Shown: positions 12,382 through 31,150, numbered from the stretch's first letter. The stretch is 31,150 bases of DNA from an uncultured archaeon (GCA_937921685.1 CAKZUF010000006.1:1-31150), one strand, 5' to 3'. The notes: generated by a model not told the origin, from the letters alone. Program-made: numbers and translations.

Positions 12382-13878
12382 TTGTTGGATTTGGTTGATT
12401 GGGGAAGGCTTGAGTTGGAGCAGATAGGCATCGTGGCTAGCCCGAGCCGTGAGACTGACGCCGACTGCATCCTCCAAGAGGGAAAGGAGAAGGAGGTGAC
12501 CTCTGAGACCCTCGTCCTCATCGACAATAGGAATGGGAATAAAGTTCTCGCCGTGTGTAGGGGAGGCGTAGGACTCAACGACAATCTTAAGATAAACTAC
12601 TATAACCCCGGTGTTGCCTATGCCAGAAGCGGCAAGAGTGCTAGCGTTGCGAAAGAGTTCTTTAGCTTTAAACTCGTGGTCATAGGAGATGTCACGGATG
12701 GAGAGATTAGACAGAATAAGACGATCATAGCACCGGCCTCGCCTGTCTACAAGTTTAAGGAGGGCACAAACCCTATGGAGCTGCTCGGCTCAGCCAAGCA
12801 CACGCTCGGCTACTATGCGATGGGGTCTCCCCAGTGGAAGGTCCCTATTCTGGCAGAGTATATTCCACATCACATAGGCGTTTTCGGGGTTACTGGCTCG
12901 GGGAAATCCTTTCTCTGCAGGTATGAGCTAATCCCGCTTCTACAAAGGGCTGGATATGATATATTGGTCTTTGACTGGAAGGGGAGCGACTACGCGCCCT
13001 ATTATCCAGACTCCGTCATCAACATGGGGGATATAGAGCTTGACGAGGCTTCCGTCTACGAGTATTTGCTGGAGAGGCTGGATAGGTTTGGGAGCGGAAA
13101 GATTGCTGAGACGCTGCAGAGATATCTCGAGGAAGTAATCTTAGGGGGTGCTTGGCGCGGCTCAGACCCTCATGAAACTATTAGCCGGCTCAAGGATGCT
13201 ATGATGAAGACTATCACAGAGGAAAACTTGGAGAAGAGTGGTAGCCTGTCAAAGTGGGGGGAGATATATGCTAGGAGGGCTGAAAAGTATCTCAGTAGAC
13301 TAAGGCCAGAGGACGTTAGACCAGTTATGGGCAAGCTGAGCGCATTGGAGATAATCAAGCGGCTCAGGGAGAAGAAGGTACTTGTCATAGATCTGAGCTA
13401 CGGCTCGAAGGAGCAGAAGCTCAGCATCTTCCTCTCCATAACCCGCCGGTTAAAAGAGCTCATGGAGGAGAAGAACAGGCTTGATATCGCCGTGCTCGTC
13501 GACGAGGCCCCGCAGTATTGCCCCTGGAATCCCAGAGGAATCGAGGAGGAAACGACTAAGCACATAATAGGCCTCGCAGCCCTCGGAAGGTCCTATGGAC
13601 TCTCCCTGATCCTCGTATCGCAGGGAATTGCGGGTGAGATTGGAATTAACGCCGCTGTAAGGCGAAACCTCAACACACTCTTCATCGGCAAGATCCACCC
13701 CCTCGACGCCATGGAGGCTGAGAAGTTCTTCGCCACATCTTGGATTGGTGCTGACAGCCTGCTGAGGCTTCCCGAAGGCCAGTTCTATATGGTTGGAAAA
13801 ATGAACCCCTCACCTATCCCACTGCTGATTACCTTCCAGATAGAGGAGGGCGAGAAGATCCGGCATGGAAAGCGGTGA
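12382..13878 (+). CDS. herA: HerA-family (DUF87/FtsK-like) hexameric ATPase/translocase
   Basis: Has an N-terminal HAS-barrel-like region (IGIVASPS...LVLIDNRNGNKVLAVCRG), Walker A GVFGVTGSGKSF and Walker B VLVDEAPQY. It starts at one of several TTG codons about 25 nt downstream of a CTTTTTATC box (12356..12364). Confidence 0.8.
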   Translation: MLDLVDWGRLELEQIGIVASPSRETDADCILQEGKEKEVTSETLVLIDNRNGNKVLAVCRGGVGLNDNLKINYYNPGVAYARSGKSASVAKEFFSFKLVVIGDVTDGEIRQNKTIIAPASPVYKFKEGTNPMELLGSAKHTLGYYAMGSPQWKVPILAEYIPHHIGVFGVTGSGKSFLCRYELIPLLQRAGYDILVFDWKGSDYAPYYPDSVINMGDIELDEASVYEYLLERLDRFGSGKIAETLQRYLEEVILGGAWRGSDPHETISRLKDAMMKTITEENLEKSGSLSKWGEIYARRAEKYLSRLRPEDVRPVMGKLSALEIIKRLREKKVLVIDLSYGSKEQKLSIFLSITRRLKELMEEKNRLDIAVLVDEAPQYCPWNPRGIEEETTKHIIGLAALGRSYGLSLILVSQGIAGEIGINAAVRRNLNTLFIGKIHPLDAMEAEKFFATSWIGADSLLRLPEGQFYMVGKMNPSPIPLLITFQIEEGEKIRHGKR

Positions 13879-15148
13879 AATTCCCGAGATCTTAAAGATA
13901 CCACGCCCCCTCCAAGAGAAATTCTTCAATGCAGCGGAGGAGGAGGCTGACCGCCTCCTAAAACGGGTCGGAGAGATTGAGAAGCTCATTGAACACATCA
14001 GCAATGAGGTTGCCAAGGGTATCTCGCGCATCCGGTTGAGAAGTGACTGGCGGGACATGACTATAGCCGTTGTCGATGGTTCAGATACGCCTGCCATCGA
14101 TGAGAGGATTGGGGTCAGGTTTGGACTGTATGCGGCCGCCTACAAGCTCTTCAGGGGCGAGGATCCCTTGGAAAACGGTGAGGGATATCTCGGCGACAGG
14201 CTGAATGAGCAGATACGCGTGAGTAGGGAGACCTTCCTCAAGGTGTTAGACTTGGTGACAACATATCTGGAGAGGGTGCTCGCAGAACATCTCCTCAAGC
14301 AGAATGATCCGCGCGTAGACTTGCTTATCATGGATGGCAGCTTCTTAGGCTATAGAGCAGGCTGCAGCCAAGTAAAGCGTGAACAAATAGATCTCACGGA
14401 ACCAGTGACTGGAAAACACTTTAGGACCGTTTACGACCTGATCTCGGAGATTAATGTCCTCACAGTGAAGATAGCACGTTCTGGGAGGGCTGTAGGCATC
14501 ATCAAGCGCGTTCCAACAGAGGCGATTGACGGCTACATTAGATATAGATATGGTGAAGGAGAGGGTCTAAATCTAAGCGATAGGGCGTTGCTGAGTCTAA
14601 CGATGAGTCAGGGCGAAGTCTTCAGCTACGAGCAGTACTTCGGATCCAAGTTTAGGATTGACGCCCTGTCGTGGTATAGGACGGTTGCGAGAGACCCAAA
14701 GGTCAGGGGGAAGAGCCGGGACGAGATTTTAAGGGAGGCGGAGAGGCGTGTAAGAGTTCAGCTCAAGGCCGACCTGACCGCATCAACGTCTGGGGAAGGG
14801 GGTGGAAAAGATTCCCATGAGGGCATTCTGGAGCTTGCGGACAGGCTGTCTAGATTCTTTGTAAGGACCAGAGAAGGGTTACCGCCAATCTGTGTCGAGG
14901 TCCCTGACACCGTTTTGAATCGTGAGAACCTATTGGATAGTGTATTATCCTACTGTCTTGAGACCTCTTCTCCTGTCTCCGGGCTGCCGAAGAGTTTAGA
15001 CCTTGTCGATGATCTTGTCTCCCTCCCAAGGGGGTTGGGTAGGGATTTTGTTACTGAGGTAGAGGCGAGGCTGCTGATGCGGGGTGTGGATAGCAGTAAG
15101 CTGGTCGCCCTTTTCAGCCGGTTCAATCCGCAGAAGGACGAGTATTAG
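13865..15148 (+). CDS. nurA: NurA-domain 5'-3' nuclease
   Basis: Contains the two DGS motifs characteristic of NurA (IAVVDGSDT and LLIMDGSFLG). It overlaps herA by 14 nt, consistent with translational coupling. Confidence 0.7.
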   Translation: MESGEIPEILKIPRPLQEKFFNAAEEEADRLLKRVGEIEKLIEHISNEVAKGISRIRLRSDWRDMTIAVVDGSDTPAIDERIGVRFGLYAAAYKLFRGEDPLENGEGYLGDRLNEQIRVSRETFLKVLDLVTTYLERVLAEHLLKQNDPRVDLLIMDGSFLGYRAGCSQVKREQIDLTEPVTGKHFRTVYDLISEINVLTVKIARSGRAVGIIKRVPTEAIDGYIRYRYGEGEGLNLSDRALLSLTMSQGEVFSYEQYFGSKFRIDALSWYRTVARDPKVRGKSRDEILREAERRVRVQLKADLTASTSGEGGGKDSHEGILELADRLSRFFVRTREGLPPICVEVPDTVLNRENLLDSVLSYCLETSSPVSGLPKSLDLVDDLVSLPRGLGRDFVTEVEARLLMRGVDSSKLVALFSRFNPQKDEY

Positions 15149-22523: not shown

Positions 22524-22745
22524 CTATAGTGCCGATTTCAGGACTATCTTCGCCGCCTTCTCCACATCCTCCTTCTTCACCGTACGCCGACCTGCATGCT
22601 GTGCAAGCTCGATAGCTTGGGATGCAACCTTCATGCCTATATCCTCTAATATCTTCCGAAGCTCCTCAACCGCCTCCTCACTGACCCGCGCTGCACCCGC
22701 CTTCCTTAAAATCCTGTGTAATGGCGCATTAGAGAGCTCGGACAT
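22524..22745 (-). CDS. archaeal histone (HMf-type histone fold)
   Basis: A single histone fold of about 70 aa: SELSNAPLHRILRKAGAARVSEEAVEELRKILEDIGMKVASQAIELAQHAGRRTVKKEDVEKA. ATG 22745 is preferred over TTG 22748 because the TATA lies 28 nt upstream. Confidence 0.9.
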   Translation of the reverse strand: MSELSNAPLHRILRKAGAARVSEEAVEELRKILEDIGMKVASQAIELAQHAGRRTVKKEDVEKAAKIVLKSAL

Positions 22746-22769
22746 CAAATTGTTGATGTGGGTGGCAGG

Positions 22770-22894: not shown

Positions 22895-23755
22895 TTGGCG
22901 TTATTGAATAGGGTCGTCTGCCCGCACTGCAAGAGGTTGACCCTGAGGGGGAAATATTGCATGAACTGTGGTAAGGAGCTTCCGGCTGAGCTGGCCCTTG
23001 AGACTCCGCTTCAGCAGCCATCCCCCCCGCAGCAGGCTGAAGAGCTTATACCAGCGACTACTACCGCCACGCCGCAGGTAGTGCAGCCCCCGACGCCGCA
23101 GGTTCCAGAGGCTCCCGCTGCCGAGGAAGTGGCCGAGGAGCGGAAGCTTGTCGAGCAGCTCTCCAAGCTACACACCTGGTCCCTGAAGCTTATTGACCTA
23201 TTGCTGGCAGGTGAGGTCCCGATAACAGTCTTTAAAGAGCTGTACGATGAGTACCGCTCCAGGATCAGCACCTTAGACCAGAAGCGTGTTGACACCATGA
23301 ATAGGATTAGCGAGAGGATAAAGGAGCTGACGCAGAAATCTGAATCCCTAAAGATTAGGCACGAGGTTAATGAGATAAGTGACCGCGACTATATTAGGCA
23401 GAAGATTGAGCTGGACAAGGAGCTTACAAGGCTGAGGCCGAAGCTCTCAATACTCCAGAACCCCTTGGAGATAAGGCTCGCTGATATCCCAGCCTTCACC
23501 GAGAGCCTCGCCAGCAAGATCCAGAATGTAAAGAGTAATGGGGAGCAGGTAGGCCTCGACAAGGACACTATATCCACGATCGTAACTGACCTGCAGTCGT
23601 TGCTGGATGCCTGTCAGGGCCTAGTCAAGCAGCATGAGAAGATTCAACACGAGATCAAGAAGCTCGAGACAAGATATAAGATTGGGGAGCTCAAGCAGGA
23701 TGAGTATCTCGCCCAGAGGCAGAGGCTTGAGCGGCAACTGGAGCTGACATTCTAA
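22895..23755 (+). CDS. zinc-ribbon / Pro-Gln-rich linker / long coiled-coil protein (candidate crenactin-associated, arcadin-like); TTG start
   Basis: Has an N-terminal CxxC-x9-CxxC (CPHCKRLTLRGKYCMNCG), a low-complexity P/Q/T/A linker of about 60 aa, and about 190 aa of heptad-rich helix with a basic/acidic pattern. It lies directly upstream of the actin homologue. Confidence 0.6.
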   Translation: MALLNRVVCPHCKRLTLRGKYCMNCGKELPAELALETPLQQPSPPQQAEELIPATTTATPQVVQPPTPQVPEAPAAEEVAEERKLVEQLSKLHTWSLKLIDLLLAGEVPITVFKELYDEYRSRISTLDQKRVDTMNRISERIKELTQKSESLKIRHEVNEISDRDYIRQKIELDKELTRLRPKLSILQNPLEIRLADIPAFTESLASKIQNVKSNGEQVGLDKDTISTIVTDLQSLLDACQGLVKQHEKIQHEIKKLETRYKIGELKQDEYLAQRQRLERQLELTF

Positions 23756-23832: not shown

Positions 23833-25101
23833 TTGTTCGAGGAGGATTATAAGCGTCGATTCGTCTTCGGCTGCGATTTCGGCACAAGCGACTACAAGTA
23901 TGGGCCGATAAGTCTGGGCGAGAGACCGCGCCTTATGGAGAATCGGGGGTATTTCCCGGAGAAGAGCATGGTTGCAGAGCTGTTGGGTGGGGGTAGGGAA
24001 GTTGTAGTGGGGGATGAGGTGACACAATTCCTTGGCAGCGGTCAAGACCTGATGAGTAGGCTGGTTTACCCGATGCGTGATGGGATTATAGGCGCTGGAG
24101 ATGAAAGAAGCTGGAAGGTTATCAGGGAGCTGCTGCTGAAGTCTCTGGGCGAGTTCAGGCCCAGCGGGTTCGGCTTTAAGGGCTACTATGTAGTCGCATC
24201 CCTCTCCGCGGTGGCCCCCCTCTACATGTATGAGAAGCTGTTCAGCTATCTTGACGAGATGGCTGAGGAGGGGCTGGTCCACTCCTCGACGCTTATCCCC
24301 CAGCCACTGGCCGTCGCCATAGCGCATAAGCAGACCTCCTGCGTAGTAGTCGAGAGCGGGCATGGGAATACTCAGGTGGCACCCATATCCAAGGCGCCGA
24401 TTCGGGGTGCGGTAGTCGCTTTGAACAGGGGTGGAAGTGAAGCGAACATGATAACTGCTGAGATTTTGAAGGACACGGGCTACGGAGACCTTGCCAAGGA
24501 AGAGAAGGTGGTTAGACGCGTCAAGGAGAAGCTTGGCCTCCTACCACTGGACTTGGATAGGGCCATTAGTTTTGCGCGGAGTAACAAGGAGGCTGTTCGA
24601 GGAACCTACCACATCGAGGGGACCAGGATTAGGATAGATTTGGGAGACCATTCATGGACCAGATTCCTCATTGGTGAGATTGTTTTTAACCCAGGTCACG
24701 AGGTGTTTCAGAGCTACTATAGGCGCGGGATGCCGCGGCCCTCCGACATAAGGATTGGCGATACGGTCTTCTACGGGATGATGGATATGGCAGAAACCGT
24801 AATCAGCGCGGTGGAGAAGTGCCCGGTTGAGCTCCAGCCACTCCTCTACGGCCAGATCATACTCTCGGGTGGGAACTTCTGCTGGACAGCCCCTGCCAAC
24901 CTCAAAGGCGTGGCATGCGACTCTCAGACAAAGCTCCAACACATGCTTCGGGAGAAGGGGATTGAGAATGCATCTGTCGTCTTGAGCCCTGAGCCTCAGT
25001 ATGCCGTCTGGAGGGGTTGTATTGTCTATGGCTATGCCCTACCCCACAGCTATGAGTGGAGCTGGGAGCGCATGGAGGGGTGGCTACATCATAAGGGTTA
25101 G
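23833..25101 (+). CDS. crenactin-type archaeal actin (actin/Hsp70 fold ATPase); TTG start
   Basis: Contains phosphate-1 FGCDFGTSDYKYGP, phosphate-2 VVESGHGNTQVAP and the adenosine motif IILSGGNF. At 422 aa it is close to actin and crenactin in size and is not MreB- or ParM-like. Confidence 0.85.
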   Translation: MFEEDYKRRFVFGCDFGTSDYKYGPISLGERPRLMENRGYFPEKSMVAELLGGGREVVVGDEVTQFLGSGQDLMSRLVYPMRDGIIGAGDERSWKVIRELLLKSLGEFRPSGFGFKGYYVVASLSAVAPLYMYEKLFSYLDEMAEEGLVHSSTLIPQPLAVAIAHKQTSCVVVESGHGNTQVAPISKAPIRGAVVALNRGGSEANMITAEILKDTGYGDLAKEEKVVRRVKEKLGLLPLDLDRAISFARSNKEAVRGTYHIEGTRIRIDLGDHSWTRFLIGEIVFNPGHEVFQSYYRRGMPRPSDIRIGDTVFYGMMDMAETVISAVEKCPVELQPLLYGQIILSGGNFCWTAPANLKGVACDSQTKLQHMLREKGIENASVVLSPEPQYAVWRGCIVYGYALPHSYEWSWERMEGWLHHKG

Positions 25102-27070: not shown

Positions 27071-27697
27071 TCACATGGGCATCTTGATAAACTTGGGAGT
27101 CTCAGACAAGAGTAGCGACTGGACCTCCCTCCTCAGCAACTCGATGTTGATGCGGTAATACTCCCCATATTCCCATTGATTTAGATGTTTTAGGGCGGCC
27201 TCGAGTAGTCTGAAATAGGTTGACGCCTCCCCCTTCTGAGCGTGCACAAATGCCGCGGCGATTTTAATTAAGCCGTACAGGACCTCCCTCTCCGCACCCT
27301 TCTTTCCCCGCCAGACCTGTTCGAGGGCCTCGTGGGCCTCCCAGTACCTCTCGTCATTGAAAAGTTCGGCAGCGTGTTCTACCAGTTTTTCGTCTGAGGC
27401 GGCTTGTGGCTCTACTATTTCCCTAAAATACTCAATGGGGGCCCATTTTGCGAGAGCGGAGACAACCGAATCCACGTCACTTGCTAAGACGTCAATCTCA
27501 ACGCGCCTTCTACCAATCCGCACATCTACGAGGCGGCCCTGTGTGTTGGATAAAATTCTTTTAGCCCTGTTGCGGAGTTCTGTGTGAAGCCCAGGTGATG
27601 CTTCCAAGCCTTGAAGCTTCAGCGCGACTATTACTCTAGCCACGGCGTAGATAACCTCTTTAAGTCGGTATATAAGGGGTCTTAGGAGACGCGACAT
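27071..27697 (-). CDS. DUF309-domain protein with an uncharacterised N-terminal domain
   Basis: The C-terminal half, FNDERYWEAHEALEQVWRGKKGAEREVLYGLIKIAAAFVHAQKGE, is the DUF309 signature. The start is uncertain: ATG 27697 or GTG 27727. Confidence 0.6.
   Translation of the reverse strand: MSRLLRPLIYRLKEVIYAVARVIVALKLQGLEASPGLHTELRNRAKRILSNTQGRLVDVRIGRRRVEIDVLASDVDSVVSALAKWAPIEYFREIVEPQAASDEKLVEHAAELFNDERYWEAHEALEQVWRGKKGAEREVLYGLIKIAAAFVHAQKGEASTYFRLLEAALKHLNQWEYGEYYRINIELLRREVQSLLLSETPKFIKMPM
27668..27677 (+). promoter_or_regulatory. TATA box (GTATATAAGG) for the 27696 membrane-protein gene
   Basis: Centred 24 nt upstream of ATG 27696, implying a leaderless mRNA. It lies inside the first codons of the divergent DUF309 gene. 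Confidence 0.5.
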
Positions 27698-29297
27698 GAA
27701 GAATAGTCTGCCCGCGATTATTCTCACCTTTGCCGCCCTCTCAGCCCTTTTCCCAGCAGATACCTGGGCCCAGGGTGAAGGCGTCTTAGTGGAGCGATAT
27801 GTCTCTGTCTCGCCCTATGGACTCGTGTATGTTTGGGATAGTCTCGCAAAAGTTCCCCCGGGTAGTAGCTTCGAGCTGGGAATACCCGGCTCAATATACC
27901 CTAATCTGAAGAACCTCGATGTTAATGGCGCTATACTCTACGGCCGAGGGGAAAAAGACGGTCATACCTACTACAAACTAGTTGCCGAGTCAGAGCAGGT
28001 TACCATAAGGCATGTTTACAGCGGCTTAGTCGCGGGCCGGGGCGGAGACTCATACACCATCACAGCACCCTCCACACCATTCTTCACAGGGATAGACTAT
28101 TCCTCAAACTTATTCATCCAGCTACCCGGCGGAGCGCAAGTCCAAAAAATTCCCAACGGATTCACGCTCAACGGGACAACGCTGGTCCAGTCGGCCGCTA
28201 AGCCCGCTACACCGGAGCCCCAGACAGTCTCCTTCAGCTTCACCTCGACCGCTGTCCAGCTGATAGTTGCAGAAAAGCTCGCCATAGTATACGACTTGGA
28301 CTCCATGATGGTTACAATATGGGTGAAGGTGCGTAACGAAGATTACAGAAGCATAACCTCTCTTTCTCTCAACCTCGCATCTGGGCTTCAAGCCATCGAG
28401 GTGGGGGACTATTCGGGCAGAATAGACTATAGGACGCGCGGAGACGCCGTGACGGTCGACATATATCCCAGCAGGTTTGAGGTCCAGAGTGGGTGGAGAT
28501 ACGAGTTCTATGTCAAGGCAAGGATTCGTGACACCGACATCGCTACGCTATCAGGGGGGGTGGTCTCGTTAGAGACATTTCTACCACTAAATGCGACGAT
28601 AGAAAACTATAACGTCGAGGTGATTCTCCCTAAAGCTCAATCCCCGGCCTCCACCGACTATTTCGCAGAGATATACAAGGATAATGCAGGCCGCGTCGTC
28701 GCCCGGTTCAAAGACGTTATGACCAAACCATACAAGCCTGAAAAACTTGTGTTTGAGACAATCCCCCAGGGAACTCCTCCAATCATACCGCAGGCTCTTA
28801 TTCTCGCAATTCTATTCCTAGGCGTACTCGGCTTCATAGCCTACAGCCACACAGCACGCGTCAGAAAACAAAAACACGGCCCGTCTTTAGACCAAGTCAC
28901 AGCTCAGAAGTTGATGCGCGAATTCAAGGAGCTCAGAGACGTTTTAGAAGAGCTGGACAACGTCGCGAGCATAGGTAAGAGAGACATTAGACATGTCCAG
29001 CTTCAGCCCAGCATATCTAGGCTTAAGTCACGATATGACTCGCTGCTTGAGTCGCTGGGAGGGGTAAAAGGAGAGGAATGGGCTGCCCGCGTTATGAAGA
29101 ATCTGCAGCAAGGCATGGGTCGCGTGAACGAGACGTTAAAAATGTTGAGTAGGAGCTACAGTGAGCTTCAGAGAGGGGAGATCAGTAGGGAGAGCTATCT
29201 GAAGATCTACAGGGCCTTGAGGGGGGATATTAGGGAGTTTATATCCAGTGTTTCCGAGTCCGAGGACGAGGTTAGAAGACTATTGGAGAAGAGATAG
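27696..29297 (+). CDS. type-I membrane glycoprotein-like protein: signal peptide, about 345-aa ectodomain, one TM helix, about 150-aa cytoplasmic coiled-coil tail; possible ribophorin I/OST1-like protein
   Basis: Has the signal peptide MKNSLPAIILTFAALSALFPADTWAQ, the TM segment ALILAILFLGVLGFIAY followed by RVRKQKH, and a charged helical tail. It has the sequons NGT and NAT. The motif PSRFEVQSGWRYEFYV recalls the ribophorin I RPRFPLFGGW block, a comparison made from memory. The confidence given is for the CDS. The family assignment is about 0.35. Confidence 0.75.
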   Translation: MKNSLPAIILTFAALSALFPADTWAQGEGVLVERYVSVSPYGLVYVWDSLAKVPPGSSFELGIPGSIYPNLKNLDVNGAILYGRGEKDGHTYYKLVAESEQVTIRHVYSGLVAGRGGDSYTITAPSTPFFTGIDYSSNLFIQLPGGAQVQKIPNGFTLNGTTLVQSAAKPATPEPQTVSFSFTSTAVQLIVAEKLAIVYDLDSMMVTIWVKVRNEDYRSITSLSLNLASGLQAIEVGDYSGRIDYRTRGDAVTVDIYPSRFEVQSGWRYEFYVKARIRDTDIATLSGGVVSLETFLPLNATIENYNVEVILPKAQSPASTDYFAEIYKDNAGRVVARFKDVMTKPYKPEKLVFETIPQGTPPIIPQALILAILFLGVLGFIAYSHTARVRKQKHGPSLDQVTAQKLMREFKELRDVLEELDNVASIGKRDIRHVQLQPSISRLKSRYDSLLESLGGVKGEEWAARVMKNLQQGMGRVNETLKMLSRSYSELQRGEISRESYLKIYRALRGDIREFISSVSESEDEVRRLLEKR

Positions 29298-30344
29298 TAT
29301 AGCCTTTTCGATAAATGCTGTTGGGTCTTCTAGCGTTCTATACAGCTTTTCCGCCCTTCGCTCAATCTCTCTCCTAGTCCTACTGCTGGTCAGGTGCTCG
29401 GAGATCTTCCCAATCTTCCCGTAGTCTGTGGGCCTGAGGACGATTAGGAGCCCTTTAGACTGTAGGAATCTATGAACGGCTGGTGTTTCGCCGGGGTAAA
29501 AGAGAACTGTCGGCTTTCCGAGTAGCGCCGACTCCTGAGCAATGGTCCCTCCTCCTGAGAGCACAATGGATGCGTTTCTTATGTATGGTAGTGCGAGCAC
29601 CGGCCTAGAGAGAAGCACGACATTCCTCGGCACCCTATCCCTGAGTAGATGGGCTTCACCCTTATACCGGCACAGCACCACGACACGTCTATAGAGCTTG
29701 GAGACCCGCTTCACAACATCCAACACCTCGGCCATTCCGCGCCCCAGAATATATGATGCTTTATACTCTGGAACCCTCACAAGCGCATATTCATCCTCAG
29801 GTGGCTCCGGGGCTTTACCCTCTAGGCGGCTATACCTCCTGATCCATGCAACAGGGTCTAATGCCCTATACTTGAGTATGCTGTGGCGTCTAGCACCCCA
29901 CACAGCCCAGTCGCGATGCCTTATGACGAAGGGTGTGAGTATCTTGGTGGAGATCGGTACACACATCCTGTTGACGGGGGAGTGGGGAGAGTCTGACGCG
30001 AGGAGGTGTGGGATCTGGAGGCCGAAGCATATCCGCGCCATCTCCACCGAGCCGCTCGAGATCGCCACATCGGGCCTCTTGTTTTTTAAATGCTTCAAGA
30101 GAAGCATTTGGCGCTCTGTGCTGGACTCCAGCTTCTCCATAAGGCTTTCACCCCCGAAGCGTCCTAGAACCAGTGCGTCGAGCTCTAAGAGTCGGAGGAT
30201 CCAGTCAAGCTGCTCATATCTCCTCGCAGTAATGAGTGTACTGAGGCCGCGTCTCTCCAGCGACTCGGCAAGGGGCCAGAAGAAGAGAGCCTGCTTTGGA
30301 GTCAGCACCTCCATCCAAACCGTCGTCAATCTCTGACACCACAC
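29280..30344 (-). CDS. DUF354-family protein (GT-B fold glycosyltransferase/epimerase-like)
   Basis: The N-terminus VWMEVLTPKQALFFWPLAESLERRG matches the DUF354 start pattern (IWIDI..P....FF.P.I..L..RG). The C-terminal LSGGGTIAQESALLGKPTVLF is a GT-B nucleotide-sugar-binding-like motif. The start is GTG 30344 or TTG 30329. Confidence 0.7.
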   Translation of the reverse strand: MWCQRLTTVWMEVLTPKQALFFWPLAESLERRGLSTLITARRYEQLDWILRLLELDALVLGRFGGESLMEKLESSTERQMLLLKHLKNKRPDVAISSGSVEMARICFGLQIPHLLASDSPHSPVNRMCVPISTKILTPFVIRHRDWAVWGARRHSILKYRALDPVAWIRRYSRLEGKAPEPPEDEYALVRVPEYKASYILGRGMAEVLDVVKRVSKLYRRVVVLCRYKGEAHLLRDRVPRNVVLLSRPVLALPYIRNASIVLSGGGTIAQESALLGKPTVLFYPGETPAVHRFLQSKGLLIVLRPTDYGKIGKISEHLTSSRTRREIERRAEKLYRTLEDPTAFIEKAILSLLQ

Positions 30345-30832
30345 TTCCCTGGATTCATAAAAAAGGTGTTGGTGTTGAGGGGTTTATAACTGTGTGGCTT
30401 CAGTCCTCAAACCCTATAGTCTCTTCAGGCTCATAGGGCTCAAACTTTGTGTAAATAGTGAGCTGTTTCTCGATGAGATGTATGTTTTTATCGCCCATCT
30501 TTTTATCTCGCCGAAATAGATTCTCCTCATGGCCGTCTCTAACCCCTCTCTCAGATATTCGATACAATATCCTGCGGTATTATCTCGAGGTAGTAGTCCG
30601 TCCCCTCCTCAATCTATTGGAGATGTTCAGGCCTGATGAAATCCGCCACCGCTCGGTAACTCTCCTCTATCTTCTTCTTCAAGCGGCGGTCTTCATGGTG
30701 ATGGTGTAGGTGGATGTATAGGTCGTCGTACGTCTCAGAAAAAGAGTCAAGCCTAACCTGACCCTGCATGTGAAAATGCTCCCTCCACAAACCCCACGGC
30801 ACCTCCAAGTCTCGGGAGGAGGGCCGCCATAA

Positions 30833-31150
30833 CGGGCAAGAGGGGATGGTGAGAAGACAATAGCCTACGTCGACGTTGGCTTCAGAGACGGTAAGGCACA
30901 CCCGGTACTGCTGAAGAATGAGGGGGTGGAGGAGTTTAGGAGGGTTAGAAGCCTATTAGAACTATTAAACCTCCAGGTAAGCGAAGTCTATGTAGATTCA
31001 CTGACGTTCAGGATAATCCCGGAGCTGAGGACATTGACTGAGCATGGTGTCAAGGTCTTCTATTTACGAGATTTGAGACTGTTAAGGGTCTTTAGAGACG
31101 CAAACAAGGTGGTGAAGAGTGATGAAAATGATGCCAGATTACTGTCCCTG
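30833..31150 (+). mobile_element. partial ORF, open to the window end, resembling the N-terminal DEDD domain of IS110-family transposases; no canonical start codon found upstream of GTG at about 30926
   Basis: My translation is ...TIAYVDVGFRDGKAHPVLLKNEGVEEFRRVRSLLELLNLQVSEVYVDSLTFRIIPELRTLTEHGVKVFYLRDLRLLRVFRDANKVVKSDENDARLLSL. The K-x-D-x-x-D-A-R-L-L block after a G-V-x-V segment resembles the IS110 KTDxxDA motif. This ORF is absent from the supplied track because it has no stop in the window. Confidence 0.3.

Follow-up and report, generated by a model that had tools for sequence, protein, structure and literature searches.

Ost1, named ribophorin I (RPN1) in mammals, is a non-catalytic subunit of the oligosaccharyltransferase (OST), and the mammalian protein contacts the ribosome via a cytosolic four-helix bundle. 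It is usually counted among the 'eukaryotic signature proteins'. This report describes an Ost1/ribophorin I-like gene in a stretch of 31,150 nucleotides (nt) from an uncultured archaeon (GCA_937921685.1 CAKZUF010000006.1:1-31150), which as a whole is referred to as the window and to which all positions given without a locus name refer. The gene (27696..29297, + strand) starts with ATG and encodes a type-I membrane protein of 533 amino acids (aa), and it converges with a gene encoding a protein of the family DUF354. Close relatives come from metagenome-assembled genomes of the Calditenuaceae/Caldarchaeales ('Aigarchaeota', TACK/Thermoproteota), and the host is therefore called an 'aigarchaeote' here. 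We regard the homology of the 533-aa protein to Ost1/ribophorin I as well supported, with little room for doubt. Moreover, we propose by analogy and with a probability of roughly 0.7 that this Ost1 homologue would act as an accessory partner of AglB/STT3, with a tail contacting the ribosome, in co-translational N-glycosylation.

For the non-catalytic OST subunits, no prokaryotic homologues were found in 2016 (Lombard, 2016; PMC4973528), and a later study recognises prokaryotic homologues for Ost1 and Ost3 only, and only in Asgard archaea (Eme et al., 2023; PMC10307638); the paper on Agl24 likewise cites ribophorin homologues in Asgard archaea only (PMC8993221). A publication from 2024 places OST1 and OST3/6 in 'TACK and Asgard archaea', in a single sentence and without detail (PMC11417166), so that the premise of a preliminary description of this DNA, according to which OST accessory homologues come mainly from Asgard archaea, is outdated. 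In the same publication, the cytosolic four-helix bundle of OST1 from MK-D1 (Ca. Prometheoarchaeum syntrophicum) was solved (8WHN) and was reported to pull down ribosomes, and ribosome binding by the cytosolic domain is known only for the human and the MK-D1 proteins (PMC11417166). A literature search for ribophorin or Ost1 together with TACK or Aigarchaeota yielded nothing more specific than this publication. The occurrence of Ost1 in TACK is already stated in the literature, and what is defined here is a concrete Caldarchaeales family, which comprises about 33 clusters at 50% identity and includes proteins of Ca. Caldarchaeum subterraneum among its distant members. Where database entries of this family carry a name, it is 'hypothetical' or 'uncharacterized', and the conserved link of the Ost1-like gene to genes for AglH and DUF354 appears to be previously undescribed.

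Architecture and homology of the Ost1-like protein

The 533-aa protein starts with a hydrophobic, signal-peptide-like N-terminus (aa 1-26, 27696..27773, ...FPADTWA-QGEG), which was read from the sequence, has a model confidence (pLDDT) below 50, and for which the alignment of homologues keeps TWAQ/AHAQ at the putative cleavage site. Two extracellular beta-sandwich domains are predicted to follow. The AlphaFold model, built from 7 sequences, places them as all-beta domains at about residues 30-200 and 205-357, with a pLDDT of 85-93 over the ectodomain. Domain 1 covers aa ~28-200 (27777..28295; model strands in 30-200), and domain 2 covers aa ~201-358 (28296..28769) and contains the RFxxxxGW and ILP blocks, the sequon N299-A-T and the match to the Pfam family Ribophorin_I. 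A single transmembrane (TM) helix at aa ~363-385 (28782..28850; helix 366-387 in the model) is, by hydropathy, the sole strongly hydrophobic segment apart from the N-terminus; it aligns with the TM segment of RPN1 and is followed by the basic cluster ARVRKQKH. The remainder forms a cytoplasmic four-helix domain (aa ~388-533, 28857..29294) with the motif LQRGEISRxSY. This tail comprises 146 aa with a net charge of +7 and is modelled as helices 400-428, 437-455, 461-492 and 498-531 at a pLDDT of about 60-87. All of these segments are encoded on the + strand.

The type-I topology given in the preliminary description, i.e., signal peptide, ectodomain, single TM helix, basic cluster and cytoplasmic tail, agrees with sequence, hydropathy and the AlphaFold model, and signal-peptide cleavage as well as the orientation in the membrane are predicted from these. 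Both open reading frames (ORFs) are present where it had placed them (27696..29297, + strand, 533 aa; 29280..30344, - strand, 354 aa), and their convergent 3' ends overlap by the 18 nt it had reported (29280..29297). Its 'long coiled-coil cytoplasmic tail' is better called a helical bundle, since the model shows four helices. The N-x-S/T sequons which it had noted in the ectodomain exist and are two in number, N159 (NGT) and N299 (NAT). In the close family N299 and A300 do not vary, and the 31-sequence alignment of the wider family has NAT as its consensus. The full metazoan/Asgard-type architecture is present in this protein, with a signal peptide, two beta-sandwiches, a TM helix and a cytoplasmic four-helix domain.

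Comparison of the AlphaFold model with the PDB by Foldseek returned RPN1 or yeast OST-complex chains at all of the best eight positions (8b6l_O, 8pn9_E, 6s7o_E, 7oci_A, 6ezn_A, 8agb_E, 6s7t_E and 6c26_1; E 1e-23 to 5e-15). AP-4 mu, as the first match of another fold class, follows at E=3e-7, so that the OST chains are ahead by about 8 orders of magnitude. Chain 6s7o_E is annotated as 'Dolichyl-diphosphooligosaccharide--protein glycosyltransferase subunit 1' and the same sequence is found in 6s7t, 8b6l and 8pn9, while 6ezn_A and 6c26_1 are chains that we take to be yeast Ost1. The alignments cover the whole yeast OST chains with 443-450 columns, and the modelled ectodomain has the two-domain beta-sandwich luminal fold of the solved Ost1 and RPN1 structures.

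At the sequence level, the best Pfam match of the window protein is Ribophorin_I (PF04597), in which residues 214-313 align with model positions 251-355 at 14.2 bits and E=0.024. The match recurs, weakly, in 5 of 7 close homologues and in 11 of the 31 wider family members. An exhaustive profile search over 1.84 billion representatives yielded 33 proteins, nearly all with a length of 520-560 aa. Two of the proteins assigned to the family by this search, P0021 (E=1.1e-14) and P0033 (E=1.3e-5), exceed with 33.8 and 35.5 bits the curated gathering threshold of PF04597 of 25 bits. The 31-sequence family profile matches human RPN1 with E=1.3e-8 over residues 275-605, which comprise luminal domain 2, the TM segment and the cytosolic domain, and it matches 8whn_A, 'Ribophorin 1 superfamily protein', with E=5.4e-5; the latter is taken to be the crystal structure of the Asgard MK-D1 OST1 cytosolic domain (PMC11417166). 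The match to RPN1 required this 31-sequence profile, and the signal grows with family depth. The sequence evidence covers domain 2 and the tail, and domain 1 is supported by comparison of the predicted structure.

Three sequence blocks resembling the eukaryotic family had been named in the preliminary description. Two of them were recovered by hmmalign, namely RFEVQSGWRYEF opposite human RFPLFGGWKTHY, and VEVILPKAQ opposite VKIILPEGA; the position of the third, YLDTFGRPVIV, is within an insertion of the human protein, and this block was neither confirmed nor refuted. In the tail, a motif common to three lineages was found by computed alignment (LQRGEI-SRESY, LVAGKL-KKDTY and YKRGKLPSKAAY), in which LQRGEISRxSY aligns with RGKLpSKAAY and AGKLKKDTY.

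Several observations weigh against the homology or limit its reach. The window protein taken alone stays under the cut-off of PF04597 (14.2 versus 25 bits), and searching the PDB sequences with the single sequence or with a 7-sequence profile gave nothing relevant apart from coiled-coil noise. The identity to human RPN1 is 14% over aligned columns (hmmalign). The AlphaFold network was possibly trained on OST structures, and the model derives from a shallow alignment of the 7 sequences. Furthermore, the 31-sequence profile also matches designed coiled coils with E about 2e-4, for which reason parts of the protein were tested separately against 1000 composition-preserving shuffles. The sub-profile of domain 2 matches human RPN1 275-437 with 24.1 bits and E=2.3e-4, a score reached by 0 of 1000 shuffles (maximum 13.4), and the sub-profile of the tail matches 8whn_A with 25.3 bits and E=1.2e-4 (0 of 1000 shuffles, maximum 8.3); the match of the tail sub-profile to the human RPN1 tail is weak, with 9.1 bits and 6 of 1000 shuffles. 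A homologue search with the broad family alignment returned close relatives only and no sequence bridging to Asgard archaea or eukaryotes.

The low identity and the sub-threshold Pfam score are what would be expected if the protein were an unrelated surface protein, e.g., an S-layer-associated protein with Ig/CARDB-like domains, the likeness of which to Ost1 arose by convergence of common folds. Beta-sandwiches and helical tails are indeed common, and a helical bias is visible in the matches of the family profile. We nevertheless consider such convergence very improbable, because ectodomain and tail give independent sequence signals that are both significant in the shuffle controls, members of the family score above the curated Pfam cut-off, Foldseek ranks the OST chains with full-length alignments ~8 orders of magnitude before any other beta-sandwich protein, and the protein agrees fully with Ost1/RPN1 in the order of its domains and the position of its TM helix. 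The preliminary description had suggested a scan against PF04597 and a structural comparison, with a lack of profile or structural similarity as one of two outcomes contradicting its proposal. Ribophorin_I came out as the top Pfam match, sub-threshold for the window protein and above the cut-off for two family members, and structural similarity was found. Together with the match of the family profile to RPN1, these results uphold the ribophorin I/OST1-like identity which it had put forward.

The conserved neighbourhood and the proposed role

The convergent partner of the Ost1-like gene (29280..30344, - strand) has a longest ORF of 354 aa, while the public gene call is 342 aa (P0096), and it encodes a soluble GT-B-fold enzyme of the DUF354 family without a TM segment. 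PF04007 matches residues 9-345 over positions 3-340 of 349 of the model with 137.2 bits and E=9.5e-40, which is above the gathering threshold, and a structure model built on database homologues has a canonical GT-B fold at a pLDDT of 93.6. Every one of the top Foldseek matches listed (E about 1e-13 to 1e-11) is a GT-B glycosyltransferase or a UDP-N-acetylhexosamine (UDP-HexNAc) 2-epimerase, and the nucleotide-sugar-binding loop GGGT..QE..L.G.P is conserved. The GT-B type that had been read from the sequence in the preliminary description is borne out by the structure model and the Foldseek matches. The enzyme may be a transferase or an epimerase. By TM-score, the best matches are UDP-HexNAc 2-epimerases (0.71-0.76 versus 0.6-0.67 for GT1 transferases, at similar E-values), including UDP-2,3-diacetamido-2,3-dideoxy-glucuronic acid 2-epimerase. 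In the comparison of the sequence profile with the PDB, the processive diacylglycerol glucosyltransferase 9wde_A is best with E=1.1e-4, and epimerases follow at 0.2 or weaker. Judged from its gene neighbours, DUF354 could be a transferase extending polyprenyl-diphosphate-HexNAc, like MurG beside MraY or Agl24 beside AglH, or it could be a WbpI-like epimerase in a UDP-diacetamido-uronic-acid pathway. An identity with Agl24 itself is ruled out, since the GGxGGH motif with an essential His, which defines MurG/Alg14/Agl24 (PMC8993221), is absent from DUF354, the N-terminus of which reads D-[VI]-L-T-P-K-Q.

A related-locus search with the close alignment yielded 6 Caldarchaeales loci only, and gene order was counted by a scripted scan with hidden Markov models over 12 distinct relative loci. 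Ten of the 12 share the order Ost1-like gene, DUF354, AglH/Alg7-like gene, small ORF with two TM helices, ~360-aa UDP-sugar-dehydrogenase-like gene and GFO_IDH_MocA gene, and this block was found in an 85%-identical relative and down to 17% identity (P0021). DUF354 is convergent with the Ost1-like gene, and by gene calls their 3' ends share 8-24 nt in every close relative as well as in the loci L014 and L015. Divergent from DUF354 lies the gene for an AglH/Alg7/MraY-family transferase (PF00953) of the polyprenyl-phosphate HexNAc-1-phosphate transferase type, and directly after it a small ORF (about 80 aa, range 70-96 aa) that encodes two TM helices. The next gene encodes a soluble protein of about 360 aa, for which a weak signal of a UDP-sugar-dehydrogenase N-domain was seen in one relative (L014), and the last one encodes a GFO_IDH_MocA enzyme that scores best as archaeal UDP-GlcNAc 3-dehydrogenase (E=7e-85). 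These neighbour genes would start and feed the assembly of a lipid-linked glycan. The block stays in place when the opposite flank changes fully (L005, L014 and L015 compared with L001). Upstream of the Ost1-like gene of P0021, an ~8-kb island of glycosylation genes (L014:1-7783) contains a sugar nucleotidyltransferase, a UDP-sugar dehydrogenase, an epimerase/dehydratase and five GT1/GT2 glycosyltransferases, and it is likely a full N-glycan assembly locus. The conserved order with DUF354, the AglH/Alg7-like transferase and the UDP-sugar-modifying enzymes strengthens the idea of an N-glycosylation module that had been raised in the preliminary description. Two loci are exceptions: in L017, the same genes lie within 6 kb in a rearranged order together with a hexapeptide acetyltransferase gene, and DUF354 is 4 kb away; in L016 (L016:8001-10599), where the Ost1-like gene of a distant family member adjoins a ribosomal-protein operon, the convergent partner is a GT2 glycosyltransferase with a 20-nt overlap. 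The pairing of the Ost1-like gene with DUF354 is therefore not obligatory.

The small ORF lies at L001:13687-13926 in one relative and has equivalents in L003, L005, L014 and L015; it is absent from the window. In size and topology it recalls Ost5/TMEM258, with which Ost1 is associated in OST subcomplex I.

In the reading that we prefer, the Ost1-like protein would reside in the cytoplasmic membrane as a non-catalytic accessory partner of AglB/STT3. The ectodomain would be placed next to the site of glycosylation, the basic helical tail would contact the ribosome at the Sec translocon, and secreted proteins emerging there would be N-glycosylated during translocation. This proposal is made because such roles are proposed for Asgard OST1 and mammalian RPN1, and the association with AglB and with the ribosome is entirely inferred by this analogy, which counts against it. 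Further points on the same side come from the neighbourhood. No STT3/AglB gene was found within 8-10 kb in the 12 distinct loci, neither by PF02516 nor as a large ORF of the WWDYG type, and the conserved neighbours are genes for glycan assembly at the cytoplasmic face rather than for OST itself. Homologues of OST3/6, Ost4 and Ost5 were not seen nearby in the relative loci. The small ORF with two TM helices has no Pfam match, and its profile matches in the PDB are chance-level TM similarities only, so that an identity as Ost5/TMEM258 finds no support; this negative result is weak, because short TM proteins are hard to detect.

The same neighbourhood suggests a different partnership, in which the Ost1-fold protein works with the enzymes of lipid-linked-glycan assembly instead of AglB, its tail recruits DUF354 (perhaps together with AglH) to the membrane, and its ectodomain has a separate or structural role. 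Models for such an arrangement exist: Alg14 recruits Alg13 next to Alg7, and MurG works beside MraY. It would fit that DUF354 with its convergent 3' overlap is the tightest conserved neighbour in all close relatives and in L014/L015, that the Ost1-like tail is cytoplasmic whereas DUF354 has no membrane segment of its own, and that the AglH-like and UDP-sugar genes come next while AglB never adjoins. However, the partner is a GT2 enzyme in L016 and DUF354 lies at a distance in L017, the overlap alone is no argument for a protein complex because convergent genes cannot be co-transcribed, and the homologous Asgard tail binds ribosomes (PMC11417166), so that we consider this partnership rather unlikely. 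The ribosome-binding homologue of the tail (PMC11417166) equally invites the view that the protein docks ribosomes or associates with the translocon for general secretion or membrane-protein biogenesis, with an incidental glycosylation neighbourhood, and several loci are in fact flanked by ribosomal-protein and translation genes. This we judge to be improbable, as the glycan-assembly block persists despite a complete change of the other flank, and the characterised relatives of the Ost1-like protein are all OST subunits.

A wider scenario can also be drawn. The Ost1 module, consisting of ectodomain and ribosome-binding bundle, might be older than the divergence of Asgard archaea from TACK archaea. 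Co-translational N-glycosylation coupled to the ribosome might then be ancestral in archaea instead of having arisen in the Asgard/eukaryote lineage, and in Aigarchaeota the Ost1-like protein may also bridge AglH and DUF354 to the oligosaccharyltransferase. We offer this scenario as a speculation and hold it to be doubtful; for eukaryotic Ost1, no such link between the assembly and the transfer of the glycan is known. With this family, the Ost1 accessory subunit extends beyond Asgard archaea, at least in its spread and likely in its origin. Moreover, it offers thermostable proteins for structural work on the contacts of Ost1 with AglB and with the ribosome, and it flags DUF354 as a candidate for a missing enzyme of the N-glycan pathway in Caldarchaeales lineages.

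Right end and further genes of the window

The conserved cluster breaks at the right end of the window (30345..31150), where the AglH-like gene of the relatives is missing and the contig comes to its end. Synteny with all relatives stops exactly at the start codon of DUF354, where the alignment with L007 diverges. In the final 806 nt there is no long ORF (none >95 aa), no structured RNA or tRNA was found at this end, and a single 14-nt palindrome is the only repeat. The final 245 nt of the window are 69% identical to L011:1641-1875, and an ORF overlapping that stretch (L011:1711-2175, 154 aa) carries the motif KxDxxDARLL and gives a weak match to DEDD_Tnp_IS110 (E=0.039). An IS110 transposase at the right end is unproven, as the window fragment has no Pfam match and its L011 homologue reaches this E-value only. 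The discontinuity may reflect the insertion of a mobile element or an assembly break. In a member of the Calditenuaceae (HR02), the AglH-like gene lies ~900 nt away from DUF354 (L010:12674-13580), compared with roughly 10-110 nt in the other relatives, and insertions may have occurred repeatedly at this junction.

On the other side, a DUF309 gene (27071-27727, - strand) has a longest ORF of 218 aa, which overlaps the start of the Ost1-like gene by 32 nt. In relatives the DUF309 gene is shorter (190-194 aa), and the overlap is for this reason regarded as a probable artefact of taking the longest ORF; the DUF309 gene probably starts further inside this ORF and would then simply be divergent from the Ost1-like gene. 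The preliminary description had assigned the window to a crenactin- and histone-bearing crenarchaeote, and the two marker genes were indeed identified, whereas the assignment to crenarchaeotes in the strict sense does not hold for a relative of the Calditenuaceae/Caldarchaeales. Crenactin is encoded at 23833..25101 (+ strand; Pfam Actin E=7e-14), and the archaeal histone is a 74-aa ORF at 22524..22748 (- strand), with a match to PF00125 at the homologous position in relatives. The crenactin gene is immediately preceded by a gene for a protein with a zinc ribbon and a coiled coil (22895-23755, + strand), which gives weak CdvA-like and GvpG matches. The pair of this CdvA-like gene and the crenactin gene is kept in all close relatives, and its product may be an arcadin-like partner of crenactin. 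Adjoining genes for a HerA-like (DUF87) helicase and a NurA nuclease lie at 12382-15148 (+ strand); HerA and NurA are archaeal genes of DNA end resection. The remaining genes of the window are archaeal housekeeping genes, including those for Sua5, threonyl-tRNA synthetase and EF-1alpha.

Comparison with known systems

With respect to the cytoplasmic enzymes, the locus resembles the pairs and complexes MurG-MraY, Alg13-Alg14-Alg7 and Agl24-AglH in that the GT-B-fold DUF354 gene divergently adjoins a gene of the AglH/Alg7/MraY family in relatives. DUF354 differs from MurG, Alg14 and Agl24 in lacking GGxGGH and in being nearest, by TM-score, to UDP-HexNAc 2-epimerases.

With Asgard OST1, the window protein shares the signal peptide, an ectodomain of the Ost1 type, the single TM helix and, at the C-terminus, a cytoplasmic four-helix domain of about 140-160 aa, and the tail motif RG-x-[IL]-x-[RK]-x-x-Y is common to both. 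The Asgard protein is longer, with 607 aa compared to 533 aa, the identity over the aligned tail (8whn_A) is ~10%, and the lineage of the window belongs to the Caldarchaeales (TACK/Thermoproteota); furthermore, homologues of TRAP or of other OST subunits were not seen near the gene of the window family. Metazoan RPN1 (6S7O chain E, 8B6L chain O) agrees with the window protein in the order of its domains, among them the cytosolic helical bundle, and in the conserved RFxxxxGW and ILP blocks, and its chains rank first in the Foldseek comparison (E 1e-23 to 7e-19). It differs by the 14% identity and the weak tail similarity (9.1 bits), and it is part of an 8-9-subunit complex of the endoplasmic reticulum, whereas the archaeal protein is assigned to the cell membrane, with no other accessory subunit evident. 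Yeast Ost1 (6EZN, 7OCI, 8AGB and 6C26) shares the two-domain luminal beta-sandwich and the single TM helix, and Foldseek aligns it over the whole chain with E 8e-18 to 5e-15 and TM-scores of 0.48-0.53 normalised to the target; in contrast to the yeast subunit, the window protein carries a cytosolic helical domain.

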